IMG/VR virus record: IMGVR_UViG_3300021400_000095
Origin: a virus
Lineage: Duplodnaviria > Caudoviricetes
Reading direction: 5' to 3' (one strand)
DNA: 64,000 nt
Shown: positions 4,308 through 60,097 of the stretch, piece by piece
How positions within the stretch are numbered: position 1 is the stretch's first letter
How the letters are laid out: each line of letters begins with the position of its first letter
Notes under the pieces: generated by a model
What the model was told of the DNA's origin: nothing
The model's input: the letters and a program-made list of their open reading frames with translations, nothing else
Databases searched by the model: none
Translations under genes and position numbers: made by a program

Positions 4308-4406
4308 ATGAAAATTTTAAATAAAGGTAAATGTTTAGATTATGTATATGATATATCATTAGATGGCACTGTAGTTAATGCATTGGGTATGAATATCTTA
4401 TCAAAT
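4308..4406 (+). other. Split intein C-part (IntC, 33 aa, terminal Ser-Asn, Thr+1)
   Basis: DYVYDISL (block F) and NILSN|TDG (block G with terminal Asn; penultimate Ser instead of His). Confidence 0.87.
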
Positions 4407-5894
4407 ACCGATGGGTTCAATTTCAAATTGCCTGATGAATCAAAATACAGATATACTAAAGAGCATCCATATGTCAGTACAGGTCTTTCAAGGGAAACTA
4501 AAAAAGATAAAGAATATGTTGGTTATGAAGCAGATGTTGCTGAATTTAATGACCAATATATGTGTGACATGCATTATGATGATAAAGCTGTTAACAAAAT
4601 GGGACTTGGCATAGACGAAATACTTAATTTCTCCTGCAACATTTCAAGAAAGAACTATTTGGATTATTTTCCAGAAAAGCCATATCCAAAGGATGTTAAG
4701 ATTGTTGGTAATACTTTAAAGTCAAAAAAATTGCCAATATATATACAGAATTTCATGGATAAGGGATTCAGATTGTTGTTACAGAATAAGGGTAGTGAAT
4801 TTCTTGAAGAGTATTACAATTATATTGAAAAGATTTACAATTTTAAGATACCACTTAAGGACATTGCCAGTAAAGGAAAGGTAAAGAAATCAATTGAGGA
4901 TTACATTGCTGATTGTGAAACAGTGACAAAGGCTGGAAATAAGAAATCAAGGCAAGCATGGATGGAGTTAGCAATTAAGAACAATGTAAAAGTTGATTTA
5001 GGTGAAACATTATATTATATAAACACAGGGACAAAGAAGTCACATTCTGATGTTAAGAGAATTACACATTATAATATGACTGATGATAGTGGTGAAATAA
5101 AAGATATAAAGACACAATTGGACAGAGAGTGGAAGAAAGCAGAAGATGGTAAAGCAGGTGTCAAGAAATCATTGAAATTTGATGAATGGGTAAAGAAACA
5201 TTATCCAAATGTAAAAATTAAGGATGAAATTGTTCTATGTGCTGAGTTATTACCAAGAGAAATTGTTGAATCAGATAAGGACTTTTATTGTGAAGAAGGA
5301 AAAGAATATAATGTTGAAAAGTACATTGACCAGTTCAATAAAAGAATTACACCACTATTAGTTTGTTTTTCAAAGGAAATCAGGTCAAAGATATTGATTA
5401 ATAAGCCAAATGAAAGGCAATATTTTACTGAAGAACAGACTGTTCTAACTTCAGGTGAGCCAAACAAGGAAGGAGACCAGGACACATATGAACAACTTAT
5501 GACAATGGAAGATAAGGAAATTAAGTTTTGGCTTGACCATCCTGAATGGAAGATTCCATTCTTAAAGGAATGTGATATGGATTGGGAAAAAATCAAGACA
5601 GATTATCTTGAAAGAAAAGAGAAGGAAAGACAATTTGGTATTGACAAAATTAGGGAAGAATTTGACAATGCAATTAACAATTTAACTCCTGAAGAAATTG
5701 AGAAGATTGATGATGGAAAGATACCAGCAAGTATTGAAAAAATTGCAGACATTGACCCATTGACTTTTAATTTTGTTAGTAAAATAGATAATAGTGTTGT
5801 TCTTGGTACTATTTATGATATCATAGATGCACAAACATATCAACAGGAAAAGAAAAGTTCTACAATGGAATATGTTCTTGAAAATAATAGTTAA
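4308..5894 (+). CDS. polB: Split-intein C-part fused to family B DNA polymerase C-terminal half
   Basis: ATG at 4308; first 33 aa are intein-like, then TDG completes motif C; SRKNY, KIVGNTLKS, YYINTG and YIDQFNKRI fit the PolB palm/thumb. Confidence 0.9.
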   Translation: MKILNKGKCLDYVYDISLDGTVVNALGMNILSNTDGFNFKLPDESKYRYTKEHPYVSTGLSRETKKDKEYVGYEADVAEFNDQYMCDMHYDDKAVNKMGLGIDEILNFSCNISRKNYLDYFPEKPYPKDVKIVGNTLKSKKLPIYIQNFMDKGFRLLLQNKGSEFLEEYYNYIEKIYNFKIPLKDIASKGKVKKSIEDYIADCETVTKAGNKKSRQAWMELAIKNNVKVDLGETLYYINTGTKKSHSDVKRITHYNMTDDSGEIKDIKTQLDREWKKAEDGKAGVKKSLKFDEWVKKHYPNVKIKDEIVLCAELLPREIVESDKDFYCEEGKEYNVEKYIDQFNKRITPLLVCFSKEIRSKILINKPNERQYFTEEQTVLTSGEPNKEGDQDTYEQLMTMEDKEIKFWLDHPEWKIPFLKECDMDWEKIKTDYLERKEKERQFGIDKIREEFDNAINNLTPEEIEKIDDGKIPASIEKIADIDPLTFNFVSKIDNSVVLGTIYDIIDAQTYQQEKKSSTMEYVLENNS

Positions 5895-5928
5895 AAAAAA
5901 GACTAAGTTTAATTACTTAGTCTTTTTT
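5894..5928. terminator. Bidirectional intrinsic terminator
   Basis: A-tract, gactaag..cttagtc stem, T-tract between convergent genes. Confidence 0.75.
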
Positions 5929-6521: not shown

Positions 6522-6522
6522 T

Positions 6523-7413
6523 TTATTCTTCTTTATATAAATTATTCATTCTATTCATCATGTCATTATATGATTTTGTTAGTTCATTGTCTTTAACATT
6601 ACTAACATCATCATGTGTAACAGGTTCATCTGTTTGTTTTGGAATAGAATTATTTTCTTGTTTTTCACCTGTTTCTTCACCATTATTTATTTCTTGTTTT
6701 GTAACTGGTTTTGCATCAGGTGCAGTCATTAAGTTATTATTAATATCAGTTTTTTGTTCAGTATTGTCAATAGGATTTTCTTTTTTCCCAAGCATATTTT
6801 GAACTTTTTGTCCAAGATTACTATTTTTAATTCTTGAAATTAAATTGTTAATAATTTGTTTTGCAGAATATTTACTATTTGTTTGTGTTTTAGGGGTTTC
6901 CTCAACATCAATATTTTTAACATCATCTTTTGTTATTGGTTTATCATCAATCTCAATTTCTTTTTCATTACTGAAATCATTATTTTTCAATTTATTTTGT
7001 TTATGAATATATCTTGCATTACCAATTGGAGCAATGTTATAGATAACTGACATTGAGTCATCACCTGTTTCTGATGAACCATTTGACATAAAACCTTCAA
7101 GAGAATCACCATCAAATTTATTTTTCATATCAATGTTCCAAGATTTAATTCTGTCAACCCTGAAATATTTCCATTTTGGAATACCTCTTTTTGTATCACC
7201 ACTTGGTTGGAAAGCCCTGACAACAGGATTATTTGCTGTTGTTAAACCATATGCAACAGGGTATATAGTTCTTGGTCCTTTCCCTTTACCACCTTTTTGG
7301 TCATCATATACAATAGAAACCGGGTGCATCCCACTGATTGCTTTATTAATCTTTGTATTGGATACACTCTCTAATAAAATTGTTTCTTTATATATTTGTT
7401 CAAATAAATCCAT
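6523..7413 (-). CDS. WYL-like domain protein with low-complexity tail
   Basis: VSIVY..PRTIYPVAYG..VVRAFQ..WKYFRVDRIKSW fits the WYL domain pattern. Confidence 0.65.
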   Translation of the reverse strand: MDLFEQIYKETILLESVSNTKINKAISGMHPVSIVYDDQKGGKGKGPRTIYPVAYGLTTANNPVVRAFQPSGDTKRGIPKWKYFRVDRIKSWNIDMKNKFDGDSLEGFMSNGSSETGDDSMSVIYNIAPIGNARYIHKQNKLKNNDFSNEKEIEIDDKPITKDDVKNIDVEETPKTQTNSKYSAKQIINNLISRIKNSNLGQKVQNMLGKKENPIDNTEQKTDINNNLMTAPDAKPVTKQEINNGEETGEKQENNSIPKQTDEPVTHDDVSNVKDNELTKSYNDMMNRMNNLYKEE

Positions 7414-7799: not shown

Positions 7800-7807
7800 A
7801 ATTTTAT

Positions 7808-10307: not shown

Positions 10308-10330
10308 ATTTAAACAAAATATTTAAATTT

Positions 10331-11512
10331 TTAAATATCAACACTTGTCCAACCTGATGGAATACCATTAGTACCTGTTGTCCATGATGTCATTGATGGG
10401 TCTTTTACAAATGTACCTGATGATGCCACATTATAAACCCAATTACTTGTACAATCAGATGCTGAAATATCAGTTGCTAAACATTTAATATAATTTAAAT
10501 TAGTACAATCTAAAAACATACTATCATAACAACATTCTGCTAATGTGGTTGCTGGTAATTCTGGTGCAGTTGTTAAATTTGTACAACCATCAAACATTTG
10601 TAGATAACAATACCTTGCTAATGTAGTAGCTGGTAATTCTGGTGCTGTTGTTAAACTACTACAACCTTGGAACATACTTCCATAACACCATCCTGCTAAA
10701 GTAGTTGCAGGTAATTCTGATACAGTTGTTAAATTACTACAATCAGCAAACATATTTGCATAACAACATTCTGCTAATGTAGTAGCTGGTAATTCTGGTG
10801 CAGTTGTTAAACTATTACAGCCTCCAAACATATATTGATAACAATAATCTGCTAAAGTAGTTGCAGGTAATTCTGGTACAATTGTTAAACTACTACAACT
10901 ATAGAACATATATGAATAACAATAATCTGCTAAAGTAATAGTAGGTAATATTAATTCACTTGCATCTATCAAACCTGTACAGTGACTAAACATATATATA
11001 AAAATAGCTTCTGCACCATTATCAAAACTATTTACTGTTGAGAAGTTAGTACTATCAATTAATGACATTATATTTCCCTTAATTTTAAATGTTGCACTAG
11101 AAGACTGAAAACAACCTTTACTCTGATAAGTATCACTAATACCATATGTTGGATTGTCCCCTCTAAATTGAATAACATCACCACTAACTACAGGTATAAA
11201 TGTGTCACCAGATTGAGAATAGCCATTAAAATTTCCAGCTGTTATTGAAGTCCATTCACCTCCATTCTTACTATATTCAATTGTGGCTCTGCCTTCTTCT
11301 GTTGGCAAACCTTCACTACAACACCAATATATATTACCATCACCCTGTATTTCAAATGTTAAAGGTGTTTCTTCCAATGGAATTTCTTTATTTTTATTAT
11401 AATGAACATCTCTATTTTGCATGGTTAAAGACACCCATGGCTCATGATATTCATCACCATTATATGCAACATCAAATGTATTTGCACTTTCAAAATAATG
11501 CATGTATCTCAT
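10331..11512 (-). CDS. BspA-like leucine-rich repeat protein (six 26-aa repeats)
   Basis: LPATTLAxxCYxxMFxxCxxLTTAPE repeats with N- and C-caps shared with 60542-63439. Confidence 0.8.
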   Translation of the reverse strand: MRYMHYFESANTFDVAYNGDEYHEPWVSLTMQNRDVHYNKNKEIPLEETPLTFEIQGDGNIYWCCSEGLPTEEGRATIEYSKNGGEWTSITAGNFNGYSQSGDTFIPVVSGDVIQFRGDNPTYGISDTYQSKGCFQSSSATFKIKGNIMSLIDSTNFSTVNSFDNGAEAIFIYMFSHCTGLIDASELILPTITLADYCYSYMFYSCSSLTIVPELPATTLADYCYQYMFGGCNSLTTAPELPATTLAECCYANMFADCSNLTTVSELPATTLAGWCYGSMFQGCSSLTTAPELPATTLARYCYLQMFDGCTNLTTAPELPATTLAECCYDSMFLDCTNLNYIKCLATDISASDCTSNWVYNVASSGTFVKDPSMTSWTTGTNGIPSGWTSVDI

Positions 11513-14959: not shown

Positions 14960-15124
14960 AATTTATCTAAATGTTTTTTATTTGGGAATAATATATCTGT
15001 TTACACCAATAATTCTATAAAATGTTGAAGTCCAGTACAAAAATATGGATAAATCTGTGAGATTCACCCATATGTTCTGTAAGTCTATTAGCAAGGTTCT
15101 GTATGAAGATGTAAAGATGGTGGC

Positions 15125-15574
15125 TTAGCCTTCATAACTTAAACCTGGTGCTCCATCTCCATATGTATCAAGCCAAATCTTGTTTATTACCTTTTGTCCT
15201 TCTTTCCATTCATACTCATAATCGTCAATGATTCTTGTTGCTTCTGCATTTAATGCATTACATAATCTTGTTAGAACAATATCCCTGAATGCTTCTTCTT
15301 CTGTAGGCTCACCCCATCTGTCATAAACACTTCCCCCATCTTCAAAATCTGCATTAAAATCATAATCCTCTTTCAGTACTTTCTTCACACTCTCAGCAAC
15401 AATCTGCCTGAGAGTGTTTTCATTTAGTTTTATTATATTCTTTTTCATATTTATATTCTTTATTTCATTAGCATTATTGTTCTTTTGATATTTTTTGGCT
15501 ACCTTGTGATTGATAGTAATTATCTGCTTTTTCAACAGTGGTATTACCTGCTGAATTTCATATCTCATCACCAA
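15125..15574 (-). CDS. Small protein with leader helix (alternative start 15448)
   Basis: MKKNIIKLNENTLRQIVAESVKKVLKE. Confidence 0.55.
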   Translation of the reverse strand: MVMRYEIQQVIPLLKKQIITINHKVAKKYQKNNNANEIKNINMKKNIIKLNENTLRQIVAESVKKVLKEDYDFNADFEDGGSVYDRWGEPTEEEAFRDIVLTRLCNALNAEATRIIDDYEYEWKEGQKVINKIWLDTYGDGAPGLSYEG

Positions 15575-15665
15575 CTATTGATACAACTATAAATAGTATG
15601 AAAAATAAAAACTCACATGGTAGTGAGTTTTTTAGTGTAAATAAGTATATTATTCCCTTTTATTT

Positions 15666-20437: not shown

Positions 20438-21310
20438 ATGGGAAGAGGAAGAAAACCAAAAGAAAGAAAAGGTTATTTTTATGAAAAAGAAGAACAAGCA
20501 GTAATAGACTACATTAATTCAACAAATAACATTGAAAAAAACCATATTTTTAATACCATATTATTTCCTGCTTTTAGTAAAATGATTGAATCAATCATTA
20601 GAAGATATAAATTATATGTCCCTGATGAAGATTTTGACCAAACATTTAATGATACTATATCATATTTGATGACAAAAATCATGCATTATAAGCCTATTAT
20701 TTATGAATATGAAGAAATTGATTCAATACCTGATGGCATAATACCTGTAATGGTTAATGAAGTTGATAAGAAAGAAATTTTTAAAAATGCCACAAGCGGT
20801 AGTCCAAAATATATTATCATAAATTCACTTGATGATATTGTACCATATGAATTAAATGAGAAGAAATATAGAGCCTTTTCATATTGTCAAACAATTTGTA
20901 AAAATTATTTAATGTTTAAGGGCATACAATATGTTAAAGGACAACAAAGAAATTTGCCATATGAATCAGATTCATTTGAAAATAATTACAAATATGCAAC
21001 AGAAGAAAACAATAGTTATATTTTGGCTGAAAAATTGATAAAAAAATCATCAAATGAAATCCTAAAGATGGTTAAATCACCTAAAGAATATGATTTAAAT
21101 GATAGTGAACTAAAAGTTGGTTATGCTCTTGTTGATTTGTTAAACAATTGGGACAAGTTGGTGATTGAAAATGGTAGTAATAAACTCCAAAAAAACTCAG
21201 TTCTTTATTTCTTAAGAGAAGAAACAATGATGTCAACAAAATTAGTTAGGGACAATATGAAGAAATTTAAAACATTATATTATCTATTAAAGGAAAAGGA
21301 ACTTGAATAG
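20438..21310 (+). CDS. gp55-like late-transcription sigma factor
   Basis: FSKMIESIIRRY..DTISYLMTKIMHYKP..RAFSYCQTICKNYL resembles sigma region 2 of T4 gp55-type proteins. Confidence 0.6.
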   Translation: MGRGRKPKERKGYFYEKEEQAVIDYINSTNNIEKNHIFNTILFPAFSKMIESIIRRYKLYVPDEDFDQTFNDTISYLMTKIMHYKPIIYEYEEIDSIPDGIIPVMVNEVDKKEIFKNATSGSPKYIIINSLDDIVPYELNEKKYRAFSYCQTICKNYLMFKGIQYVKGQQRNLPYESDSFENNYKYATEENNSYILAEKLIKKSSNEILKMVKSPKEYDLNDSELKVGYALVDLLNNWDKLVIENGSNKLQKNSVLYFLREETMMSTKLVRDNMKKFKTLYYLLKEKELE

Positions 21311-30390: not shown

Positions 30391-32505
30391 TTAAATGATT
30401 TGTTCAGTGTCACCATCTAATTCATTGTAAAAATCTGTTTCAGTATAACCACTTTCCTTGTTTTCATCATCTGATGAATCACTATCTTCAACTTCTTCAC
30501 TAATTATGTTTTTATCTGAATCATCAAGCAAATTATCAATCTTGTCAAAAATATTACCAACAACCTCATTTATAAAAACATTCTTGCTTTCAAAATCAAA
30601 AGGCTCTTCAACATAATCTGGTGATTCCTTGATACATTTATTCAATAAATCAAAATATTGTTCAGTAAATGTTTTAACTTCATTAATTACAGGCTTTTTC
30701 TTTTTCCTTGATTCCATTGGACCACCATTATCTGCTTCAGGTGCTTCTGACATGTCCATTGTGTCCTCAGTTCCACCCATGTCACCCATGTCTTCAGAAC
30801 CAGCACTTCCAAGTGAATCCATATTAAGTGAACCACCTCCAATGTCAGGACTACCACCAGGGCCACCACCCATGTCCCCCATTTCATCATTACTTTGTGC
30901 TTGTTGCTGACCACCATTCAATGCATCATAATCACCATATACTCTATCTACATCATCAAACACACCTGTTTTCTTAATTATGCTTGCTGTGTTTTCAAGT
31001 TCAGCAGCCATTGCCTTCTCCAACCTGATTTCTAATAACATGTCTTTGATTTCTTCATCTGTCATCTTCATGATTTTTTTCAATACCAAATGAAGTGACA
31101 TTAATGGCATACCAATACCAGGGTCTGCTAAAGCAGCAGTTGCTGTTCCAATTCTCTTTGTAATGTCTTCAAGTTCAAGTGCTTCAATTTGTGCTGATGG
31201 ATTGTTTAATGATAAACTGAAATTCATTAATTCATCATCAAGCCCAAGAAAATGAAGGTGAACCATTGCAACTTTATTTAATTCCATTAATAGATATTGT
31301 TGAATAGTGTTTATCATTCTGGAAAACCTTACATCCAATAATGATAAATTCTGACCCTTTCCTTGTGCCTCTTGGAAATTTAAGAAAGTTTTAGGTACTC
31401 TTAAAGCAGCAAATATTTTGTTCTGCATATAATTAATATCATCCATTTGAGTTGGATTTTGTGCAGATGGCAAATTCTCAATTGGTGTAGGTGCAGAAGG
31501 GTCTCTGACTGGAATAAAATAATCAGTTGAAACATCCATGAAGTTCTTTCTTAAATCAACTTGACCTGTTTGTGGGTCAATAACAGGTGTTCTCTTAAAC
31601 TGATTAGCAAATTCTTGAATAAATGCAGGAACATCTTGGTCATCAATTGCACCAACATAAACCTTAAACACCCTTCTTTCAATACTCTTATCCAATCTGT
31701 AAATCAACATGGCATCTTCCATCATAGACCACATTCTCCATGCCCTTCTTGCTTTATGCAAATGACTTACACCATATGGTAAAAATAAACTGTCTTTTAA
31801 TAATCTAAAATGTGCAACCTGCCAATCTTTATATGGTGTTGCTTCATTATGACCAACCCAAACAAATCTTGTTTCATCTGGCTTTAAATCTTGAATTTGA
31901 TTTGGTAATACACCTGAATACATTGAAGTATATCCATTTTCAACTCTGTCCATTTCATAAACAGGTAACTGCTTCCAACCTAAAACACCATTTTTTTGGT
32001 CAATATTTAATAACATGAATTGATTACCATATTTTGCCATTGCTCTTGCAATCATAGGTAATGTAATATGTATGTTTAACCTGTTTACAAATAAATCTTC
32101 AAGTATTGACTTAACTCTTCTTGACTTTGATTTGATGGATAACATGACATTATCACTATTGAAATTACATGCTTCCTCTGATATAATGTCAAGTGCTGCC
32201 CCAATTTCAGGTGTTGCATCCATTAAATCAGCATCCCTGTACATTAACTTCACAGCAGTATAACCAGCAAGACTTTCCATTGCATTATCTGCTCCTGCTT
32301 TAGCCCACTGATATGATAATAATTTCTGTTGCTTTAACTGAGTTAATTTTCTTTCATATGCTTCCTTGTCAGTTGTTGTATATAATACCCTTTCACTTGC
32401 AGCAGGAAGTCCTGTTGCTGGTGTTCTTGTAATATCAGGTGAAACACTGCTTCCAAATAATGTATTTCCAACCCTTTGAAATATTGTTTGTCTTTTATCT
32501 GCCAT
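30391..32505 (-). CDS. Portal protein (T4 gp20-like) with acidic C-terminal extension
   Basis: PEIGAALDIISEE, PYGVSHL, MEDAMLIYR..ERRVFKVYVG, DYFIPVR, ALRVPKTFL, DVRFSR. Confidence 0.93.
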   Translation of the reverse strand: MADKRQTIFQRVGNTLFGSSVSPDITRTPATGLPAASERVLYTTTDKEAYERKLTQLKQQKLLSYQWAKAGADNAMESLAGYTAVKLMYRDADLMDATPEIGAALDIISEEACNFNSDNVMLSIKSKSRRVKSILEDLFVNRLNIHITLPMIARAMAKYGNQFMLLNIDQKNGVLGWKQLPVYEMDRVENGYTSMYSGVLPNQIQDLKPDETRFVWVGHNEATPYKDWQVAHFRLLKDSLFLPYGVSHLHKARRAWRMWSMMEDAMLIYRLDKSIERRVFKVYVGAIDDQDVPAFIQEFANQFKRTPVIDPQTGQVDLRKNFMDVSTDYFIPVRDPSAPTPIENLPSAQNPTQMDDINYMQNKIFAALRVPKTFLNFQEAQGKGQNLSLLDVRFSRMINTIQQYLLMELNKVAMVHLHFLGLDDELMNFSLSLNNPSAQIEALELEDITKRIGTATAALADPGIGMPLMSLHLVLKKIMKMTDEEIKDMLLEIRLEKAMAAELENTASIIKKTGVFDDVDRVYGDYDALNGGQQQAQSNDEMGDMGGGPGGSPDIGGGSLNMDSLGSAGSEDMGDMGGTEDTMDMSEAPEADNGGPMESRKKKKPVINEVKTFTEQYFDLLNKCIKESPDYVEEPFDFESKNVFINEVVGNIFDKIDNLLDDSDKNIISEEVEDSDSSDDENKESGYTETDFYNELDGDTEQII

Positions 32506-32561
32506 ATATTTTTATTTCTAATAAAATAAGTTATAGCAACTTAAATGTAAATGTTTATTAA

Positions 32562-32759
32562 CTACTTTCCTTCTTTCCAACAATCAAAACAACCCTTTCC
32601 TAATAAATGGTCATATACTGATTGATAAAATAAACCATGTTTAGGACAATAAATTGGAATGTTGTTAAATGGTTCTATATTTGTATCTGGTACACTTCTA
32701 TAATCATATGTGTTACCATATATTTCAGTTGCTCTCTCAACAAATTCTTTCTTTGTCAT
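32562..32759 (-). CDS. Stand-alone single zinc-ribbon repeat (endonuclease remnant or DNA-binding mini-protein)
   Basis: EFVERA..YDY..IYCPKHGLFYQ..HLLGKGCFDC; one unit of the repeat in 1642-3366 and 35824-36621, with no nuclease domain. Confidence 0.7.
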   Translation of the reverse strand: MTKKEFVERATEIYGNTYDYRSVPDTNIEPFNNIPIYCPKHGLFYQSVYDHLLGKGCFDCWKEGK

Positions 32760-32761
32760 AA

Positions 32762-33938: not shown

Positions 33939-35837
33939 TTATTTTATCAACCACCTATAAGCATCAATAACTGTGTTGCCTACCTTATCTATTGTGTGAT
34001 TACTGTATATTGGCATATATGTTTTTGTTGGCTCTGCTGATATTGTTCTGTTGCTTTGCTTCTGTGGCATGCTTGCCTGTATTTTTTTTGCACTGTTAAT
34101 CCATGCCATTAAAAATGATGCATCTTTCTCTCTTGCAACTTGTAAATTATTAAAATGAAACTTGTAAACAAACATACCCATACCTAAACATGTCAATGTA
34201 TCATCATGACAACCATCTTGATGGTCTTGCCTACCATTCTTGAATATCCATGTGTCCAACTCACCAATAACTCTCTTACTTCTAATCCTAATTGCATTTG
34301 TCTTAATGTCATTGGCAAAAAATGATAACATTTGAAATCTAACTGAACTGTTGTGAAAACCTGGTAATTTTCCATCATTTGTCAATTGTATTGTGGATGC
34401 ATCTCTCTGTATAGTAAATGTTTTTAATGTTGGGTCATCATAAAATAAATTCTTGTAACCTAGCCTCATCATGGCTAATACTGTTGCATCACCATAACCA
34501 CCAATACACTCAACAATGGCAAAGGCTTCATTATACCACATACCATACCAATATGCAATCTCACCTAAATTGTCACCAGTAATCTTTCCATTGTATTCCA
34601 ATACTTGCTCAATACATGGTAAACCATTTTCATCAATGGCATCAATGTCAAGAATTTCAATAGCAGACCTATCATCACTGTCACCTCTACTTGCATCAAT
34701 TGGCATAATGTACCTGTGACCAGGAATTGGTTTCTTCCAAACCCATGTATCTTCAAGATGAAACATATCATCATCCTCTGATTTTGATAATGGTGTTCTT
34801 ACATTCAATGTCTCCTGCATCTCAATAAACTCTGGCTCCACAACATTTGATGCTGAACCTAAAAATGAAACATCCAATTCCTGTGCAATCTTTTGTTCAT
34901 CATTGTTAAATTGCTGACACATCTTTGTATACCATGGTGACCTTGGTTTCCATCCATCTTTGACCATCTCAGACCAATGCTCATTGTCCCATTTTATATT
35001 ACCATCCTTGTCAATCAAAGGCTCCTTGAATACCTCTATTTCACCTGTTTCTTTGTTCTTCTTTGTCCATTCAAGATGCTTGTTATATCTTGGGTCTTGA
35101 TACCACTTTAATTCAACTAATTCAAAATTGTTCCAATCACTTGTACCCTTTAATGCAGCCCTTCTACATGTTTCATAATAAAGTTGGTCCTTACCATTAG
35201 GTGTTGAAATCATAATAGTATGACCACCTGTTGAAATTGTAGGAACTGCTGATGCATAAACATCTTTACCATTTTCAATGAAAGCAGCCTCATCAAGTAC
35301 CAACCATGTAACACCACCAACACCTCTTGATGCATCAGGCCCTGATGACCTTGCAACAACCTTACAACCATTTTTTAATCTCAATTCTTTGTTGTTACAT
35401 ACATCAAATATGATGTTTTTGTTATCAGGTGCTTTTAATATATCATATCCTTTGTCAAAATATTCATCACCCCACATCCATAAAGGAAATTGTAGCAAAA
35501 AGTCTCTTACTTTAAAAAGAAATTGCTGTGCCAAATCCAATGTGTTACCAATACAAAGTACTGTTTGTGGCATATCCTTATCAGCAAGGCACATCTCACA
35601 TGAAATAAATGCACTTGCTGTTGTTGTAATACCAGCCTGTCTCGGCTTGGTGCAAACAACATTATGACCACCTGAAAATGCTTCACATAGTTTAATTTGT
35701 CTTGGGTATAACTTGAAATTTACCTCTTTACCTTGTGTGGCATCATAGGTTTTAAGATAATTTTCTATCATATATACCCTTGTTTTATTTCTAAAACATT
35801 TAATATACTCACTTTGTAAATACCTAATGTCTATCAT
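33939..35837 (-). CDS. terL: Terminase large subunit (T4 gp17-like)
   Basis: LYPRQ, KPRQAGITT, LVLDEAAF, ISTPNG, IAQELDVSFLGS, PIDASRG, HDDTL. Confidence 0.93.
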   Translation of the reverse strand: MIDIRYLQSEYIKCFRNKTRVYMIENYLKTYDATQGKEVNFKLYPRQIKLCEAFSGGHNVVCTKPRQAGITTTASAFISCEMCLADKDMPQTVLCIGNTLDLAQQFLFKVRDFLLQFPLWMWGDEYFDKGYDILKAPDNKNIIFDVCNNKELRLKNGCKVVARSSGPDASRGVGGVTWLVLDEAAFIENGKDVYASAVPTISTGGHTIMISTPNGKDQLYYETCRRAALKGTSDWNNFELVELKWYQDPRYNKHLEWTKKNKETGEIEVFKEPLIDKDGNIKWDNEHWSEMVKDGWKPRSPWYTKMCQQFNNDEQKIAQELDVSFLGSASNVVEPEFIEMQETLNVRTPLSKSEDDDMFHLEDTWVWKKPIPGHRYIMPIDASRGDSDDRSAIEILDIDAIDENGLPCIEQVLEYNGKITGDNLGEIAYWYGMWYNEAFAIVECIGGYGDATVLAMMRLGYKNLFYDDPTLKTFTIQRDASTIQLTNDGKLPGFHNSSVRFQMLSFFANDIKTNAIRIRSKRVIGELDTWIFKNGRQDHQDGCHDDTLTCLGMGMFVYKFHFNNLQVAREKDASFLMAWINSAKKIQASMPQKQSNRTISAEPTKTYMPIYSNHTIDKVGNTVIDAYRWLIK

Positions 35838-36621
35838 AACTTGAAATACTTTTAATATTCTTTATTAATTCCTCTTCATTAGTATAAATTTTACTTAAAT
35901 ATTCATTAGGGATTTCTTTAGTTTTTTCATATGTAAAATATAATAATATTATATTGTTTTTGACACATAAATTATACTTCCTTTTATCCCTTTCACAAAC
36001 ATCAATATATCCTTTTATTCCTCCAAATTTTGAAATTGGTTTAAAATGTTGTCTTCCTTGGTATTCAATTCCAATATTATAATCAGGCAAAAAAATATCT
36101 ATTGATTGTGGTTTTCCATTTGTTTTTAAAAAATCAGGTTTGTATTGTGAAATAACATTACTAAAACTTTTTTTCATTATTTCATAAAGTTTTTTCTCTG
36201 AAACATCATTTCTTCCACATATTGGGCAACCACTACCAGCAATGTGATGATGTGGTGTTTGCCAAAATTCCCCATGTTCTGGGCAAATAATACATACTTT
36301 TGTCTCATTGTTTACATATTCTACTTTACTGTAGTCATATTTGTTTCCATGTATTTTTATTGCTTTTTTCACAAAATCTTCTGTTGATAAACCTTGTTTT
36401 TCCCTAATTTTTTTTGTTGAATTAATATATCTACAAACAGGACAACCTTGCCCTCTTCTCATATGACAATCAGGTGTTTGCCAAAATTCTCCATGTTCTG
36501 GACAAATAATGCATACCTTTGTTTTATTGTTTATATATTCAACTTTTGAATAATCATATTTATTTTTGTGCAATTTAACAGACCTTTCAATAAATTCTTC
36601 AAGATTTAATTTTTGTGGCAT
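35824..36621 (-). CDS. Free-standing homing endonuclease-like protein (two zinc-ribbon repeats and PD-(D/E)XK/Vsr-like domain)
   Basis: IICPEHGEFWQ twice; SIDIFLPDYNIGIEYQGRQHF..RDKRK; overlaps the terminase start. Confidence 0.78.
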   Translation of the reverse strand: MPQKLNLEEFIERSVKLHKNKYDYSKVEYINNKTKVCIICPEHGEFWQTPDCHMRRGQGCPVCRYINSTKKIREKQGLSTEDFVKKAIKIHGNKYDYSKVEYVNNETKVCIICPEHGEFWQTPHHHIAGSGCPICGRNDVSEKKLYEIMKKSFSNVISQYKPDFLKTNGKPQSIDIFLPDYNIGIEYQGRQHFKPISKFGGIKGYIDVCERDKRKYNLCVKNNIILLYFTYEKTKEIPNEYLSKIYTNEEELIKNIKSISSYDRH

Positions 36622-36751: not shown

Positions 36752-37714
36752 ATGTCTTTATATATGAAAACACAACTTAATGAAACAATTAATCTTATGA
36801 ATAGAATGAACTTGTTTGAAGGTACATCACCAAGACAACAAGTTTCAAGAGATGAAATTATTGATATTCTTAATCAACAAGATGATAGTGCTGGTGGTAC
36901 TTTTGTTTCCTTTGTTTATGTAAAACCACAAAGTTTTTATGTAACAAGAAAAAATTGGAGAACTGATGATGTTAACAATGTACTTTCAAAATATGGTGAA
37001 GAAGGTAATGAACACTGGTATCCTTATGTCAAAAAATTTAATGATGATGCAACACAGAAAAAATTAAATGGCATTGATGGCATTATTGTTACTACAAGAT
37101 ATAATGTCCACTGGACAACCCCTGAATCATATAAAAAAGCATATTCAGACTACTCTGAAAAATTACATGCTCTTAGAATGAGAAATGGTATTGGCCTTGA
37201 TTCTGATGGTATGCTTGGTGATAACCATAACCAAAGACAAACAAGTGACTATGGCCCACAATTTAACCAAACAGGAAATCTTTCAAAAGATTTTAATCTT
37301 GCATCAATGACAACAAAACCAAAATCAACTTGTTATGTTGTTGGTAATGATGGACTTATTAAAGGTGAAATTCCTGATGAAATGATTAAAGCAATGAATA
37401 AGCCATATACACCACAAGGCCCTGAAAAAGCAGTTGCTGATGTATTATCTGGTGAAGCACTTGAAGCCTATATGAAAGCAAAAGCAGAACTTGATAAAAC
37501 ATTTAATGGCAAAAATTTCCTATATGATAAAATCCTTTCAATTGTTGCAACAGTTAATGGAACATCATATTATTATATCAATGATGCAATTAAATCAGAA
37601 ATTAGGAAAAACTCTGAAATAACTGTTAATCCACAAGAACTTGTTAAAATTGCACAAGAACAATTATCAAATTCGTTCAAGGAAATTGCTGATTATGACC
37701 CAGCAAAAAGATAA
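36752..37714 (+). CDS. Hypothetical protein with scaffold-like N-terminal helix
   Basis: KTQLNETINLMNRMNLFEG; late motif at about 36735. Confidence 0.65.
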   Translation: MSLYMKTQLNETINLMNRMNLFEGTSPRQQVSRDEIIDILNQQDDSAGGTFVSFVYVKPQSFYVTRKNWRTDDVNNVLSKYGEEGNEHWYPYVKKFNDDATQKKLNGIDGIIVTTRYNVHWTTPESYKKAYSDYSEKLHALRMRNGIGLDSDGMLGDNHNQRQTSDYGPQFNQTGNLSKDFNLASMTTKPKSTCYVVGNDGLIKGEIPDEMIKAMNKPYTPQGPEKAVADVLSGEALEAYMKAKAELDKTFNGKNFLYDKILSIVATVNGTSYYYINDAIKSEIRKNSEITVNPQELVKIAQEQLSNSFKEIADYDPAKR

Positions 37715-38524: not shown

Positions 38525-38538
38525 CTCAGTCTCTTTTT
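38510..38538. terminator. Bidirectional intrinsic terminator
   Basis: aaagagactga-ttaac-tcagtctcttt. Confidence 0.75.
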
Positions 38539-40232
38539 CTTTCCCATACATATTTTATTAATCCACAATCCCATATTCTATCATATCCTAATTCTTTTGC
38601 CATTTCAGTTTCTGTCATTGTTAATGGAAAACCAAATTTTTTATGCAATTTTTTCTTATTTAAAAGCATCTTGTGTATTCTTTTATATTTGTTATTGTCT
38701 TTTGTCTTATCACTATAATATTTATAATCAGGTGGATTAAATCTATCAAATTTAAAACCTAACTTAGTATAAAGATTTTCAGTACTATTAATTGTCCATC
38801 TTCTATCAGCAAATGATACTATTTTGTTTGGTTTAAATTCTTTTACAAAATAACCAAACAACTTTCCACCAATTCCTTGGCAAATATAATTATAATTACT
38901 TGCAAATCTTGAAAGTTCCCAACAAGCATTTCTCATTGAGCCATTTTTAAATGTCATAACAGCCACTAATTCATCATTATAATAAGCACCTAAATAAATA
39001 CTTGATGCAACATATCCTTGTATGTGGTATTTTTCAAGAAAATCCTTTGCATCTGACATTCTTATTTGCTTTATTTCACACTTTCTACCCATAATTTTTG
39101 GTTTGTTATTATCAAGATGTAAAATGTGACTTAATTTATTAAATACAATATCTTTATGAAAAAAATATTCATCTTCAAAAATGTGAATAAGGCCATATCC
39201 ATGTTTATTACAAATTTCTGTCTTTTCTAAATGATACCTGTGTGATTTTTTACCAAACCATTCTGTATGCCACTTAAGTCCATCAAACTCAATACCAATT
39301 TTTAAATCAGGAATTAAAATATCTATTTCCTTACCTTCAAGAATTTGTCTATTGGTTTCAAATTTTATGTTATTATTAGTTAAAAATTCTTGTATTTCTT
39401 TTTCATATTTAGAAACAAATCTATGTTTGTTGGTTGTTAAATTAACAAGTTTTTGTGCATCTAATGTTTGTTTATACATGTTTTCTGACATTAATTGCAC
39501 TTCAGGATATTTTTCTTTTAATTCAGAAAGACTAATGCCATGTGTTTTAATATGTGATAAAGTTAATTTTTCATATTTCTCACCACAAATAGGGCATTGA
39601 ACAAAATTACTATTATTTTCTAACAATAATCCCCTTTCAATATGTTTTTTATATTTCTTAAAATAAAAAATATCATCAGGAAATTCTTTAATATAGTCAG
39701 CAAGTGATTTATTGTGTACCTCTTTTAAATGTACTTCAAATGCACCACTCTTATTTTCTATATCAACAGTTTCCCAATCACAATAAGGACACTTTTTTAC
39801 TTCTTTTTTTTCTCTTTTTTCAACATCAAACCACTGTTCCCACCAATAATTACCTGTTGTTTGATAATAAATCCTTCTGTCATATAAACTTGGTATTTCT
39901 ATCTTTAGTTTTTCCCTAATATGGCTTGTTAGATGACCCCCATCATTATTACAATCAACATATTCAGTACCATCAATTTTAGATTTAGCAACATAATAAT
40001 AACTATCTGTATTTATATACTTTTTTATATGAAAATCAGGCACAACAAAATTTCTAACAATTCTTTCAGAATGCCTATCTCTTAACTTAATATTATTTCT
40101 TGATAAAATTTCTTTTGCTTTAATTTTACCTATTCTATATTTTGTGCAAATATCCAATAACTTGGAACCATTTAAATACTCATTACACAATTCAAGTTCA
40201 TTAATGCTAATATCTTTTCTCATGTTTATCAT
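38526..40232 (-). CDS. Free-standing homing endonuclease-like protein (C2H2-like fingers, PD-(D/E)XK, Hef-like C-domain)
   Basis: CPYC..H...H, CPIC..H...H; EIDILIPDLKIGIEFDGLKWH; FLEKYHIQG..WELSRF..SFADRRW..RIWDCG; directly downstream of the capsid gene. Confidence 0.75.
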   Translation of the reverse strand: MINMRKDISINELELCNEYLNGSKLLDICTKYRIGKIKAKEILSRNNIKLRDRHSERIVRNFVVPDFHIKKYINTDSYYYVAKSKIDGTEYVDCNNDGGHLTSHIREKLKIEIPSLYDRRIYYQTTGNYWWEQWFDVEKREKKEVKKCPYCDWETVDIENKSGAFEVHLKEVHNKSLADYIKEFPDDIFYFKKYKKHIERGLLLENNSNFVQCPICGEKYEKLTLSHIKTHGISLSELKEKYPEVQLMSENMYKQTLDAQKLVNLTTNKHRFVSKYEKEIQEFLTNNNIKFETNRQILEGKEIDILIPDLKIGIEFDGLKWHTEWFGKKSHRYHLEKTEICNKHGYGLIHIFEDEYFFHKDIVFNKLSHILHLDNNKPKIMGRKCEIKQIRMSDAKDFLEKYHIQGYVASSIYLGAYYNDELVAVMTFKNGSMRNACWELSRFASNYNYICQGIGGKLFGYFVKEFKPNKIVSFADRRWTINSTENLYTKLGFKFDRFNPPDYKYYSDKTKDNNKYKRIHKMLLNKKKLHKKFGFPLTMTETEMAKELGYDRIWDCGLIKYVWERKRD

Positions 40233-40442: not shown

Positions 40443-42347
40443 TTATCTAAGTTCATTGATATCCCATGTTGTAAGGCCATCTACTCTCACGCCACCATAA
40501 AATCTGTTGTTAACACACTTCTTGGCATATCTTGTGATAATGCCCTTTACAGGAGCAAAGTTGTGAGGGTTGTAGATAACTGGAGTAAGTTGCATAGGGA
40601 TATAAGGAGCATAGATATAGCCAGTATCAAGAAGGCTCTTACCCTTGTGACCAATGATGATTGACCAAGCAGGGGAATAAGGGTCTCTATAGACCTGATA
40701 TCTACCACCAAGTGAACCTACTCTTTCAATACCCATATTGTATTGGTCTGATTCAGCAGAAGCATCAGAGACATGGAAGTATTCAAGGTTATCAAATACA
40801 GCAGAGATTTCAGAAGAAACTACAAGGAAGTTTGCACCACCTCTAAGAGTTGCTTTATGGATTTGAGCAGAGATTTGGTTAACCTTAGTTACAAGTTCTT
40901 GGTTCCAGTCTTTTTGGGTGTAGTTAGTGCTGAAGCCAGCCATTCTTCTCCAACCATTGACATCCCATCTTGCTTGCCATGGAGCAAATTTTCTAAGGTC
41001 TCTAAGAATCTCTCTATCAATTTCAGCAGCAATTTGTTCTGAAAGGAGAGCAGTTAATTCAGCCTCAGCATCAATATTATGGAAAGCACTTACATCTTGT
41101 GCAAGTTCAGGTGACCATGTTGCTCTAAGTTTTCTTTCTTCAACTGAAACAGTAACACTATCAAGTTTGAAAGAAACCTCACCAATTTCAGTTTCAAGTT
41201 CAAGGCTATCATACTGACACCATGCTACTTGGAAGAGGTCATCAATAGAGTCAGGCATTTCAACACCAAGATAGCCATCCATAGAAGCACCTTGTACTTT
41301 TGCAGGTTTTGCAAGGTCAATATCAAGGTAGATGCAACCTTCAGCATCACATACACCTGCATATTCTACAATACCCTTACCATATTTTTGGGTAACAACT
41401 CTGAAAGGAATTGATTCATTAGCAGCAAAGCAAGTTGAGCCTGAGCCACCAATAGCTTCCTTAGCAACTACTTTAAGAGAACCAAGGAAAGCTTCAGTAT
41501 CCATTTCATTTCCATCAGGGCCTGTAAGTTTGCTTGCATTGTAAGATGAGAAGCCTTTAACTTTAAGGATAAGGTTTCTAAGAGTACCATCACTATAGAG
41601 TTTAAGGTCATCCTTAGTTGCATCAACTAATTGGCCTCTCTTGAAGACAACAGGAGTAGCTTCACCAACTTTGATATGAATCTTACCCTTTGAGTTATCA
41701 AAAAGGAAATCATTATAGAAGAGGTCATAAAGGGTTTTGCCCATATACTTAGTAACTTCAGGAGAAACCTGTCTTACTCTTTGACCATCTTCAAGTGAAG
41801 CAAAAGCCTCATCATATGAAGTGAAACCTGAAGAAACAACCTCACCAGATTTTACATCATAAACTTCAAAGATTTGTTCATTAACAACCTCATCAGGGAG
41901 ATAGAATCTGTTATAAGTAGAACCATCTCTTCTGTCAGTTCTCTCATAACCCATAAGACCTCTATGTCTGCCAGTAGTACCATCTTCAATTTCTTCAGAT
42001 GACCACTCTCTTTCACTGGTAACAGGGAGTAAGTAGAAGAGTTTACCAATAGGAAGGTTCATAGCCTGTACTGATACAATATCATTAGCAAGGAGTTTGC
42101 TGAATACTCTTCTGATAATAGGGAATACAACAGTTTCAAATGAACCACTGTTGCTTGCATCTGATGCTTCTTTAAGCATTGCCTTAGCTTGGTTTTCATA
42201 AAGGGTTGCTACATTTTCCTTTACAATACCAACAAGACCATCAGTCATACCAAGAGAATCCCATCTCTTAGCAATTTCAGTTCTAATTCTTTTCTGTTCA
42301 TTAAGTTCAATAGTACCTACTTGACCAGATTTTAAAAATTCAACCAT
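40443..42347 (-). CDS. Major capsid protein (T4 gp23-like)
   Basis: PIIRRVF..DIVSVQAMNLPIG, RKLRATWSPELAQD..AEAELTALLSEQIAAEIDREIL, GYIYAPYIP, TRYA. Confidence 0.95.
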   Translation of the reverse strand: MVEFLKSGQVGTIELNEQKRIRTEIAKRWDSLGMTDGLVGIVKENVATLYENQAKAMLKEASDASNSGSFETVVFPIIRRVFSKLLANDIVSVQAMNLPIGKLFYLLPVTSEREWSSEEIEDGTTGRHRGLMGYERTDRRDGSTYNRFYLPDEVVNEQIFEVYDVKSGEVVSSGFTSYDEAFASLEDGQRVRQVSPEVTKYMGKTLYDLFYNDFLFDNSKGKIHIKVGEATPVVFKRGQLVDATKDDLKLYSDGTLRNLILKVKGFSSYNASKLTGPDGNEMDTEAFLGSLKVVAKEAIGGSGSTCFAANESIPFRVVTQKYGKGIVEYAGVCDAEGCIYLDIDLAKPAKVQGASMDGYLGVEMPDSIDDLFQVAWCQYDSLELETEIGEVSFKLDSVTVSVEERKLRATWSPELAQDVSAFHNIDAEAELTALLSEQIAAEIDREILRDLRKFAPWQARWDVNGWRRMAGFSTNYTQKDWNQELVTKVNQISAQIHKATLRGGANFLVVSSEISAVFDNLEYFHVSDASAESDQYNMGIERVGSLGGRYQVYRDPYSPAWSIIIGHKGKSLLDTGYIYAPYIPMQLTPVIYNPHNFAPVKGIITRYAKKCVNNRFYGGVRVDGLTTWDINELR

Positions 42348-45304: not shown

Positions 45305-46036
45305 TTACCCATTTAACCAATCATTATATTTATCTAATTTGTCAAACAGAACATTTCCCTTTTTGTCATTATTTTCTTTAACATAGACATATTCTGATGG
45401 TATACCATCAGGGCAAATCCAAGCATTTCCAGTACTTGGTTCACTAACAACATCAAAACACACCAATTCAAAATCATCACCAACATACAAGGTTCCCATT
45501 CTTTGTGTTACAGAACCAAGACCTCTTGAAGATAGACCAATTTTATAGCCTTGTAACAATAGGTTTGCTGTTTGGTCACCTTGACATGATATAATACCAA
45601 ATTTTCTAAAACCTGGACTAGTAATAATTTCAATTTTACCAACAAGAGTATTTCCCTGCCAATGTAATTCAACAACATTAATTGCAACTCTACTAAGGTC
45701 AATTGTGGAGGATTCTGGGTGGTTTAGTTCGGCCAATGCTCTTCTTTCATCCATAATTTTTTGATATTTTTGGACTTCTCTTTTAAGAATATGTTCAGGA
45801 TATATTCTACCATTGGCATTCTCAACACCAAATCTTTGGAACACAGCATCAACAATAAATGGGTATGGGCAATGGAATTCATTGTCAATACCTTCATTTA
45901 TTTTATTATAGGATTCAAACAACTGTTGGTTATTGCCACAATCTTTAGAGATATAGCCATCACATTCAATCAATAATCCTGTACCAATTTCACCTTTATG
46001 TATTTCAGTCAAATTTCTTACATCCATAATTAACAA
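45305..46036 (-). CDS. Prohead maturation protease (T4 gp21-like)
   Basis: NANGRIYP, ALAELNHP, GLSSRGLGS, FDVVSEPS. Confidence 0.93.
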   Translation of the reverse strand: MLIMDVRNLTEIHKGEIGTGLLIECDGYISKDCGNNQQLFESYNKINEGIDNEFHCPYPFIVDAVFQRFGVENANGRIYPEHILKREVQKYQKIMDERRALAELNHPESSTIDLSRVAINVVELHWQGNTLVGKIEIITSPGFRKFGIISCQGDQTANLLLQGYKIGLSSRGLGSVTQRMGTLYVGDDFELVCFDVVSEPSTGNAWICPDGIPSEYVYVKENNDKKGNVLFDKLDKYNDWLNG

Positions 46037-54857: not shown

Positions 54858-54879
54858 AATTATTTAGAATATTATTTAA

Positions 54880-56508: not shown

Positions 56509-56531
56509 AATTATATTTTATTTTTTGTTAC

Positions 56532-56735: not shown

Positions 56736-56797
56736 ATGTATAATAATTGTATAATTTGTTATTATTTTATAGATAAATAGTTGAATTTTTTGAAAAA

Positions 56798-57517: not shown

Positions 57518-57519
57518 AG

Positions 57520-57550
57520 TTGCTTTTTTTACTAAAAATATGTATATTTG
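57520..57550 (+). promoter_or_regulatory. Bacteroidota-type promoter of clpC/B
   Basis: TTG-N20-TATATTTG. Confidence 0.55.
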
Positions 57551-57580
57551 TCAAAAATATCAATATAAAAAAAGAAGAGA

Positions 57581-60097
57581 ATGATAGAGAGAGAAAAATA
57601 TTCAGATGAATTAAACCATGTATTTGATTACATGCTTAATGAACTTGTTAATGAAATACCAACAATTGCATTGACACCAACATACCTGATAGTCTCAATT
57701 TTAAGAGAAAAGACATCCATTGCATATAACAAATTATCAAATTGTTTAACAACAACTTCATTAAATGCAATGGAAACAACATTTACCAATTATTTAACAA
57801 CAAAGGCTTTAACTGTTGTTAAACCAGGAAGAGAACCAATGTATAGTCAATCATTTGTTTCATTAATGGAAAATGCTGAACATGAAAGAAATAAAACAAA
57901 ACAACCAAAAATTACAAGTGAACATGTCATCCTTGCAATTTTAAATGATACATCACCTGAAAATAAAATTGCAACAGTATTTAGAAGAGCTGGACTTACA
58001 TATGTTACATTCCTTGAAAAGAAAGTAACACAAAATCCAGTGCAACAAACACCAAATGCAATCCTTCTTAATTTAACAGGTGTTGAAAATCCCCAGGAAT
58101 TTATAAAAAATGTCACAGGAAACTTTATGACTGAACAAAACAACAATAATGGTGGAAATAAGAAAAAGTCAAAACACCCAAATATTGATGCATTCTGCTC
58201 AAATATTAATGACCTTGTTTTTAATCATCAAATTGACAAAATTATTGGTAGAGAAAATGAACTTGAAGAAATTATAAGAATCCTTGGCAGAAGAAGAAAA
58301 AACAATGTTATTATTGTTGGCCCTGAAGGATGTGGTAAAACAGCACTTGCTGAATCACTTGCATATAAAATTGTTGAAGGAGATGTACCTGAATTCTTGC
58401 AAAATAAAATTGTCATTTCACTTGATATGACTGCACTTGTTGCTGGAACTACTCTTAGGGGTATGTTTGAAGATAGAGTTAAAGGAATTATTAATGAAAT
58501 TAAACAAAGTGGTAATTATATCCTCCTTATTGATAATATTGGTGCTGTAATGGCAGATAAGGGTAAAAATGACTATGACATTAGTTCAATGCTCTCACAT
58601 TCCCTTGAAAATGGAGATATTCAAGTTGTTGGTACTTCTGACTATAAGTCCTATAGAGCAACATTTGATAAAGACCCTTCATTGGCAAGAAGATTTCAGA
58701 AACTTAATATTGAATCACCATCACTTGATGATTCTAAGAAAATCCTTGATGGAATTAAACAATATTATGAAGATTATCATGGTGTAAAATATACTGATAA
58801 TGCAATTAACCTTTGTGTTGAATTGGCAAATAGATATTTCCCTGAAAGAAATTTACCAGATTCTGCAATTGATATTATGGATGAAGCAGGTTCAGTTGTT
58901 GGAACAAAAGCAAATTCAAGTAAAGAAATACAACAAAAGAAAATTGAAATCAAAAATCTTGAAGATGGAATTGAAAAAGAAAAGAAAAATGAAAACTATG
59001 ATGAAGTTGATAATCTTGAAAGAGTACTTCAATCACAGAAAAACTTCTTGACCAATCTTGAAAAAGATTTTAAAGACTACAGAAAAAGATATCCTGAAGT
59101 AGTTGATGATAATGTTATATTTGAAATTGTCTCAAAGAAAACAGGTATTCCAACAAATAAATTGTCCTCAGATGATAAACAAAGAATATCACAACTTGAT
59201 GATAGACTTAAACAAGAAATTATTGGACAAGACCATGCAATTGATATGGTTTGTAGAGCAATTAAAAGAAATAGAGTTGGCCTTTCAAATAACAAATGCC
59301 TCTGCTCCTATTTGGTCCTAGGTCGGACCGGAGTCGGTAAAACTTTATTAGCCAAGATGTTAGCAAAAGAAATCTTTGGTGATGAAAAAGCATTGATTAG
59401 ATTTGATATGTCTGAATATCCTGATAAGACAGCAGTTAATAAATTAATTGGTTCAAACCCTGGATATGTTGGATATGAAGATGGTGGTTTATTAACAGAG
59501 GCAGTTAAAAACAGGAAACATTGTGTTCTTCTTCTTGATGAAATTGAAAAAGCAGATAAAGATGTATATAATATATTCTTACAGGTTCTTGATGAAGGCT
59601 TCCTTACAGATAATTCTGGAATGAAAGTAGATTTTAGAAATGTAATCATTATTTTTACATCAAATGTTGGTGCAAAAACAGCAAGTGATTTCAGTAAAGT
59701 TATTGGTTTTGTTGATGATGAAGGGAAAAATACAAAAAAAGTTATTTCAAAGGAACTTAAAAATAAATTCCCACCTGAATTTCTTAATAGATTAAATGAT
59801 ATTATATATTTCAATAATCTTACAGACAATGACCTTGAAAAAATTATTGGCCTTGAACTTAAGAAATCTGAAAATAGAATCAATAAAATTGGTTATGAAT
59901 TAAAATATAATGATGATGTTGTTAAATATCTTCTGAATATTGTTAAGGAGGAAAAAGAATTTGGTGCAAGACCTGTTATCAGAACAATTCAAACTGAAAT
60001 TGAAGATAGAATAACTGATATGCTTCTTGATAAAGAATATGAACAACAACATATATTTAATGTTACTTGTAATGAAAATAAAATAGCCATAGATTAA
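57581..60097 (+). CDS. ClpC/ClpB-family AAA+ chaperone
   Basis: Clp N-domain, IIGRENE, GPEGCGKT, LPDSAIDIMDEA, UVR-like coil, GRTGVGKT, RFDMSEY, GYVGYEDGG, LLDEIEKA, FGARP. Confidence 0.93.
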   Translation: MIEREKYSDELNHVFDYMLNELVNEIPTIALTPTYLIVSILREKTSIAYNKLSNCLTTTSLNAMETTFTNYLTTKALTVVKPGREPMYSQSFVSLMENAEHERNKTKQPKITSEHVILAILNDTSPENKIATVFRRAGLTYVTFLEKKVTQNPVQQTPNAILLNLTGVENPQEFIKNVTGNFMTEQNNNNGGNKKKSKHPNIDAFCSNINDLVFNHQIDKIIGRENELEEIIRILGRRRKNNVIIVGPEGCGKTALAESLAYKIVEGDVPEFLQNKIVISLDMTALVAGTTLRGMFEDRVKGIINEIKQSGNYILLIDNIGAVMADKGKNDYDISSMLSHSLENGDIQVVGTSDYKSYRATFDKDPSLARRFQKLNIESPSLDDSKKILDGIKQYYEDYHGVKYTDNAINLCVELANRYFPERNLPDSAIDIMDEAGSVVGTKANSSKEIQQKKIEIKNLEDGIEKEKKNENYDEVDNLERVLQSQKNFLTNLEKDFKDYRKRYPEVVDDNVIFEIVSKKTGIPTNKLSSDDKQRISQLDDRLKQEIIGQDHAIDMVCRAIKRNRVGLSNNKCLCSYLVLGRTGVGKTLLAKMLAKEIFGDEKALIRFDMSEYPDKTAVNKLIGSNPGYVGYEDGGLLTEAVKNRKHCVLLLDEIEKADKDVYNIFLQVLDEGFLTDNSGMKVDFRNVIIIFTSNVGAKTASDFSKVIGFVDDEGKNTKKVISKELKNKFPPEFLNRLNDIIYFNNLTDNDLEKIIGLELKKSENRINKIGYELKYNDDVVKYLLNIVKEEKEFGARPVIRTIQTEIEDRITDMLLDKEYEQQHIFNVTCNENKIAID

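Follow-up and report, generated by a model that had tools for sequence, protein, structure and literature searches.

Fractured genes that are accompanied by Vsr-like endonucleases are known (Dassa et al. 2009, PMC2677866), and free-standing endonucleases cut hundreds of base pairs away from their own gene and co-convert the interval (PMC2988022). Here we compare these systems with the 64,000-nucleotide (nt) stretch of IMG/VR virus record IMGVR_UViG_3300021400_000095, hereafter the window, which is part of a T4-like jumbo phage (giant rumen phage) and is nearly stripped of CpG dinucleotides. About half of the CpGs that survive in the window probably mark targets of mobile endonucleases and inteins or DNA converted with them, and the other half would be ordinary recent mutations. 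The link from surviving CpGs to endonuclease targets is new here.

The window encodes a Gp23-type capsid protein, an S77 prohead protease, a T4-type terminase, a ClpB-like ATPase and a family-B DNA polymerase in two pieces; near-identical DNA recurs in the gut metagenomes of cattle and sheep, across 14 studies. The GC content is 29.4% and there are exactly 13 CpGs, corresponding to an observed/expected ratio (O/E) of 0.009, with O/E values of 1.44 for TpG and 1.40 for CpA. Twelve of the 13 are coding and each of these is synonymously avoidable (eight at NNC|G codon boundaries, three in NCG codons, one in CGG). The original prediction, made from the sequence alone, had counted roughly 13 CpGs at these same sites and had placed several of them in locally GC3-rich codon patches. 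The local DNA is indeed GC-rich: GC content within 6–10 nt of the survivors is raised over that around GpC, TpG, CpA, GG and CC controls (P about 0.001–0.015), and 4 of the window's 13 most GC-rich 21-mers hold a surviving CpG. Endonuclease genes indeed adjoin polB, terL and the capsid gene, as it had also proposed; these neighbours match phrog_559, phrog_3339, phrog_681 and phrog_9084.

For comparison, strain-level contigs (L114–L137 and L218–L222) were recovered via exact-protein look-ups. They share 97–98.5% nucleotide identity with the window, are equally CpG-purged and differ in the endonuclease genes they carry; their own scattered single CpGs are mostly CA/CG differences. G001, a complete 363-kb relative with a CpG O/E of 0.64, served as outgroup. 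Further relatives found in IMG/VR and metagenome contigs via the terL, Clp and capsid proteins show 59–91% capsid identity and nearly all have normal CpG levels (O/E 0.45–1.2), and they were rejected because their divergence is too great for tests at silent sites: where the residue is the same, only 58% of wobble positions agree. The closest record in the phage collection reached only about 40% capsid identity.

The ClpB/ClpC-like double-AAA+ ATPase gene (57581..60097, + strand; AAA_2, AAA_lid_9 and ClpB_D2-small domains), which falls into a strain-level protein cluster, is uninterrupted in the window. Its D2 Walker A motif, GRTGVGKT, is encoded by a recoded patch (59320..59343, + strand) in which the CpGs 59324, 59329 and 59335 lie within 11 nt, an arrangement with a chance of about 2.5e-5 under uniform placement. 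Comparison of the strains revealed three alleles of this site with identical flanks. The window-type allele, GGT CGG ACC GGA GTC GGT AAA ACT, occurs in ten independent assemblies and also in X8 and X15, and its clustered CpGs are found in 10 of 13 contigs. The allele of L114, GGC AAG ACT GGA ACT GGA AAA ACT, is CpG-free. In L121, L122 and run X9 the gene is split at GVGK|T, and the exteins of L121 and L122 read GGT AAG ACT GGT GTG GGA AAG | ACA; the insertion point of the intein in these sister strains maps between window positions 59340 and 59341. In the sheep-gut contig X9, the joint runs from 59323 to 59338 with 1,674 nt between. The N-terminal intein half (IntN) comprises 33 amino acids (aa) following GVGK and begins with CISGETNV. 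The C-terminal half (IntC) comprises 123 aa and ends with ILSHN directly before TLLAK, so that intein end motifs are present; it matches the intein splicing domain PF14890 with an E-value of 3.8e-6, a hit below Pfam's own cut-off. The split open reading frames (ORFs) encode 620 and 374 aa, and the joined exteins amount to 839 codons including the stop, collinear with the 838-aa gene of the window. Contigs of run X2 end at 59324 and 59337, which may reflect mixed alleles in one sample, contig ends being no proof of this.

Between the Clp intein halves lies a gene for a 377-aa protein (L121:11926–13059) with phrog_22677 as its only PHROG match. Sequence searches with this protein gave neither a Pfam family above the cut-off nor a match to any PDB sequence, and BLASTP against the window's capsid-adjacent endonuclease found nothing. 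Its fold was assigned by structure comparison, in which Foldseek gave weak E-values and a second structural alignment was clear: residues 247–377 match Vsr (Z 11.1, root-mean-square deviation (rmsd) 3.3 over 129 residues), and the same domain matches the homing endonuclease I-Bth0305I (Z 10.3, rmsd 2.4, 94 of 97 residues). The original prediction had regarded the Clp motif as the target of an endonuclease missing from the window. None is present at the Clp gene of the window, and the split intein together with the Vsr-like gene was found at that very site in L121, L122 and X9.

The sequence of the patch sets the window apart from the split alleles. It differs from the intein-bearing exteins at 8 of 21 nt, compared with only 36 differences in the whole 2,517-nt gene (1.4% background), and from the L114 allele at nine positions between identical flanks. 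Changes affect the wobble positions of seven of seven consecutive codons, in addition to one K to R replacement. At the five wobble positions comparable with G001, the intein-bearing exteins match the outgroup five times and the window patch not once; hence the CpG-free sequence is ancestral and constitutes the occupied homing site, and the patch with three CpGs is derived. This polarity is opposite to the immunity of the carrier allele by recoding that the original prediction had assumed, since at Clp the recoded allele is that of the non-carrier. We propose that the ancestral CpG-free P-loop served as the homing site of a split intein and a free-standing Vsr-like endonuclease, and that the derived window allele would resist cleavage. 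In such a fractured gene, the two Clp products would be trans-spliced and the empty ancestral allele would be cleaved site-specifically.

Templated change is a competing origin of such patches. If short tracts from CpG-normal, GC-richer relatives had been copied neutrally into the most conserved motifs, with endonucleases uninvolved, a donor resembling the Clp patch might be expected; the exact 21-mer is absent from IMG/VR, and the best of 96 related P-loops agrees at 21 of 24 nt and belongs to distant genes. Suitable donors are not scarce as regards composition, as most relatives have a CpG O/E of 0.5–1.0 and higher GC content, but at least three CpGs in this 24-mer occur in only 3 of 96 CpG-normal relatives. 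The protein motif itself speaks for copying: GRTGVGKT is the commonest variant among 129 homologues (48, next to 29 with GKTGVGKT, 8 with GKTGTGKT and a single canonical GPTGVGKT), so that the motif of L114 also occurs in the wider family, and the V to T replacement in L114 takes three substitutions within a single codon, a point in favour of templated change. On the other side, a diverged donor should differ at about 42% of wobble positions and not at seven out of seven (probability about 0.002), the patch coincides to the base with the intein insertion point, and the terL tract described below is tied to the presence of an endonuclease gene in two different backgrounds. We therefore regard neutral conversion as improbable, and favour recoding of a homing site. 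In the homologues, this usually invariant P-loop (GPTGVGKT) carries R, K, Q or N at position 2 and V, T, I or C at position 5, a variability that fits long-term pressure on that DNA site.

CpGs would arise as a by-product wherever wobble positions are densely recoded before codons starting with G (Gly, Val, Asp, Ala), and local selection or recent conversion would outweigh the genome-wide penalty on CpG. Simulated random recoding of all wobble positions yielded a mean of 1.67 CpGs for the Clp patch and 3.0 for a patch at polB motif B (see below), with 1.43 for an average run of seven codons; dense recoding thus makes CpGs without any special benefit of CpG. These simulations bear on the idea that the retained CpGs act as DNA or RNA signals, for instance by receiving a CpG-specific modification that keeps endonucleases from binding, or by serving in regulation or packaging. 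As random recoding alone predicts the observed counts and L114 was recoded without a single CpG, we consider such signals unlikely, even though the CpG density of the patches is far above that of CpG-normal relatives and strains share the CpGs 40490, 7321 and 63515, none of which lies in a patch. Equally doubtful appears the special case in which the patch CpGs themselves protect, the CpG-directed agent behind the purge also masking the CpG-laden target from the homing endonuclease. If this were true, the phage would put up with CpG solely at places where it protects against a selfish element, and a CpG-directed agent would be tied to the dynamics of inteins and endonucleases.

A second locus linked to an endonuclease gene is that of the large terminase. 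The terL gene (33939..35837, − strand; Terminase_6N) has a free-standing homing endonuclease gene upstream (35824..36621, − strand), the 265-aa product of which matches phrog_559, phrog_681 and phrog_9084; these families are annotated as HNH or homing endonuclease, and Pfam recognises only DUF4379 and DUF723 zinc-finger modules. The gene is present in the window and in L222 and absent from L127–L131 and G001. Alignment of the window with the five endonuclease-less strains revealed 34 differences within 147 nt of the 5′ part of terL (35643..35789, − strand; terL nt 49–195) and almost none beyond. CpG 35643, located in the Pro codon CCG of the Walker A motif KPRQAG, is the innermost divergent base. 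In this tract, the residues of the endonuclease-less strains are the G001 consensus, which makes the tract of the window the odd one. L222, which does have the endonuclease gene, agrees with the window across that gene and ~205 nt at the start of terL (four differences) and then, after nt 227, diverges by 8.5%. The endonuclease gene and about 200 nt of terL consequently move as one unit that ends in Walker A, and the tie between patch and endonuclease claimed for terL in the original prediction is upheld. Here the carrier differs from the non-carriers at the Walker A codons, and the mechanism may be homing from a distant cut site, putatively these codons, with co-conversion of the interval. 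Between the gp13-like and portal genes (window 32505–32762, corresponding to L127:13079–13276), the strains annotate a 65-aa DUF723 fragment, which is probably the remnant of a decayed endonuclease.

The polB gene is interrupted in the window itself. The N-extein (3..1046, + strand; its 5′ end lies outside the window) is followed at motif C by the N-terminal half of a split intein (1047..1598, + strand; weak PF14890 match, E 0.039), a free-standing homing endonuclease gene (1642..3366, + strand; phrog_559, E 1.5e-147, and phrog_3339), the C-terminal intein half (4269..4406, + strand), which ends with ILSN|T, and the C-extein (4407..5894, + strand). The latter contains CpG 4409 in its +1 Thr codon and CpG 4616. 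This split intein was found in the window and in all six strains covering the region (L132–L137) with different sets of genes between the halves, and the polB gene of G001 is contiguous. Depending on the strain, the extein codons +1 to +3 read ACC GAT GGG, ACC GAC GGT (two CpGs), ACC GAT GGT or ACT GAT GGT (no CpG). Further clusters across the strains concern 4409/4412, 4613–4640, polB motif B and, in the capsid gene, 40490/40493. Four CpGs in 28 nt (4613–4640) occur in L135–L137 (L135:1225–1260, window 4610–4645), strains that lack a 627-aa endonuclease gene located just upstream of the polB C-half in L132 and L134. At motif B (NSFFGAYG; L134:1181–1204, window 855–878), L134 alone shows wobble changes in six of six consecutive codons, all synonymous, with four CpGs. 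The polarity of this patch could not be set from G001, which has different residues there. No mobile element was found at motif B or near 4613–4640 in the strains compared; from the CpG pattern, we predict both as candidate homing sites.

The major capsid gene (40443..42347, − strand) contains CpG 40490, and a homing endonuclease gene lies downstream of it (38526..40232, − strand; phrog_3339, E 1.7e-93). The latter is replaced by other genes in L127 and L131 (635 aa) and in L130 (335 aa), and the CpG is about 120 nt from the point where the strains start to differ in this way. It is kept in three of three strains, all of which have a second CpG at 40493. The protease CpG (45730..45731, − strand) is private to the window; L130 differs from it here by one base, and with respect to L127 and L131 the site belongs to a long mosaic segment. 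The proposal that the protease is a target was not supported, the CpG being such a private single-base difference, although endonuclease genes do flank the protease gene downstream in L130 and upstream in G001. L121 carries an extra DUF723-type endonuclease gene between two head-region genes (L121:2242–3369, flanked by the counterparts of window positions 51227 and 51296); it is absent from the window, and the region is not conspicuous by its CpGs.

Five further survivors are isolated and without link to any endonuclease gene, which speaks against reading them as target sites. CpGs 20797..20798 and 37674..37675 (both + strand) are private to the window and absent from all four strains compared, 7321..7322 (− strand) is common to four of five strains and lies in no patch, 15223..15224 (− strand) is located inside a window-specific insertion (14984–15657), and the intergenic CpG 63515..63516 is also present in L121, the sole strain covering the site. 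The insertion holds, besides its one CpG, a 149-aa ORF (15125–15574), and in every strain compared 14983 is followed immediately by 15658; kinship of this ORF with a 149-aa ORF of L132 was considered and rejected, as the two are unrelated. Downstream of the Clp region, L115 (12474–13628), L116 and L118 have an IS605 OrfB/TnpB-type gene with a Cas12f1-like TNB domain, and in its place the window has a longer, repeat-rich gene of 965 aa. Window 10331–11512 and 60542–63439 contain paralogous genes of ~78-nt periodic repeats, which produce numerous offset matches between the two genes as well as with several G001 locations.

Such isolated CpGs raise the question whether all survivors might be random new mutations awaiting removal, so that their placement is meaningless. 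A number of the single CpGs occur in the window alone, one transition away from the neighbouring strains. The 2.6-kb contig Ga0310696_10142551 (L035), the sole CpG-free exception among the diverged relatives, keeps a single capsid CpG at another position. Nor are conserved stretches enriched in survivors overall: judged by smoothed aa identity to G001, their mean conservation percentile is 0.51 genome-wide and 0.41 within their own genes. The former count of eight of 13 in conserved motifs was subjective. Deep catalytic motifs with a CpG are confined to polB motif C, terL Walker A and Clp D2 Walker A; the IDE site of polB (4616) and the protease site are of average conservation, and the capsid CpG lies on a variable residue (G/S/H/T). 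Random mutation as an explanation is contradicted for the clustered sites, where three CpGs in 11 nt are hardly compatible with uniform placement, where cluster CpGs recur in many independent assemblies and where clusters reappear at intein and endonuclease sites. It is retained for about half of the CpGs, but as an account of all survivors we consider it very improbable. As a separate observation, L035 has 84% capsid protein identity to the window, below the 91% of the CpG-normal G001, which points to repeated origins of the purge or else to recombination of capsid genes across lineages.

In the combined explanation that we prefer, about seven CpGs at five loci (three at Clp, one at terL, two at polB and possibly that of the capsid gene) would lie on or beside targets of endonuclease elements that vary between near-identical strains. 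The other approximately six would represent noise of mutation and selection; they are isolated and, where comparable, most are one transition from a neighbour. Eight of the 13 CpGs (6 of 11 loci) are inside or at most 250 nt from a strain-variable junction of a mobile element, DNA that makes up 10.4% of the window. Several results weigh against this explanation. The threshold of 250 nt was chosen post hoc with the data already seen, and a fixed patch rule (at least five differences per 25 nt) captured three of eight covered loci against 11% of covered positions, with marginal significance. At terL, L130 lacks the endonuclease gene, yet keeps CpG 35643. The polB junction of the window is identical to the intein-free G001 over 17 nt, hence CpG 4409 is not a carrier-specific change; it is present unchanged in an endonuclease-free relative, the very finding that the original prediction had named as evidence against itself. 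Moreover, every strain is intein-bearing at polB, leaving no empty allele among the strains for comparison. The capsid gene shows only 13–15 differences from the strains over its whole length and no recoded patch, contrary to what had been proposed for its conserved CpG 40490. Most CpG-creating changes in the patches had synonymous options free of CpG, so that the CpGs were not forced. Finally, the alleles, their linkage, the polarity and the endonuclease fold are direct observations, and the positions of cleavage and the resistance of recoded alleles are what we infer from them. Taken together, the association of CpG patches with endonuclease targets holds for Clp and terL, is plausible for polB and unproven for the capsid gene, and is not supported for the protease and the other single CpGs.

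A CpG-stripped genome acts as a natural contrast medium in which dense silent recoding becomes visible as a small cluster of CpGs. Clusters of this kind indicate homing sites in the phage population studied, and one occupied site was predicted from the sequence alone and subsequently found in sister strains. At Clp, an occupied ancestral site exists in wild cattle and sheep gut samples of many studies beside two independently recoded empty alleles, which would represent the resistance stage of the life cycle of homing endonucleases, a stage rarely seen directly. The alleles provide candidate targets on which a Vsr-like endonuclease can be tested, and Clp is likely a new intein host gene.

The avoidance of short words of the restriction-site type in phages relates to the CpG purge, which forms the background here; the exceptions and not the cause of the purge are at issue. 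A likeness to nuclease genes at the boundaries of phage exchange (PMC10055350) is that endonuclease genes sit at the borders of mosaic segments in closely related genomes, albeit in a different phage group. The Seg and Mob free-standing endonucleases of T4 are characterised by intronless homing, distant cleavage sites, co-conversion and marker exclusion (PMC2988022; mobE, PMC2790892; SegB, PMC2330249). The terL locus resembles them in that an intergenic endonuclease gene next to a core gene varies in presence among close strains and in that part of the adjoining core gene travels along with it, up to a conserved motif at a distance of about 200 nt. It differs in that cleavage is here a prediction, in that the terL nuclease belongs to a DUF723/treble-clef family (HNH or homing endonuclease according to PHROGs), and in that the tract has many amino-acid changes besides the silent ones. 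The fractured genes (PMC2677866; Taylor et al. 2011, PMC3239194; EDxHD, I-Bth0305I-type) are matched by Clp of the sister strains and polB of the window, which are both cut at a catalytic motif into two ORFs that carry intein halves at the break with an endonuclease gene between them; at Clp, this endonuclease also has the Vsr/I-Bth0305I fold. In contrast to these systems, the D2 P-loop of a ClpB-like ATPase is not among the hosts listed in the consulted sections of PMC2677866, the IntN of Clp is short (33 aa) and its IntC long (123 aa), and two different recoded empty alleles coexist with the occupied ancestral site.

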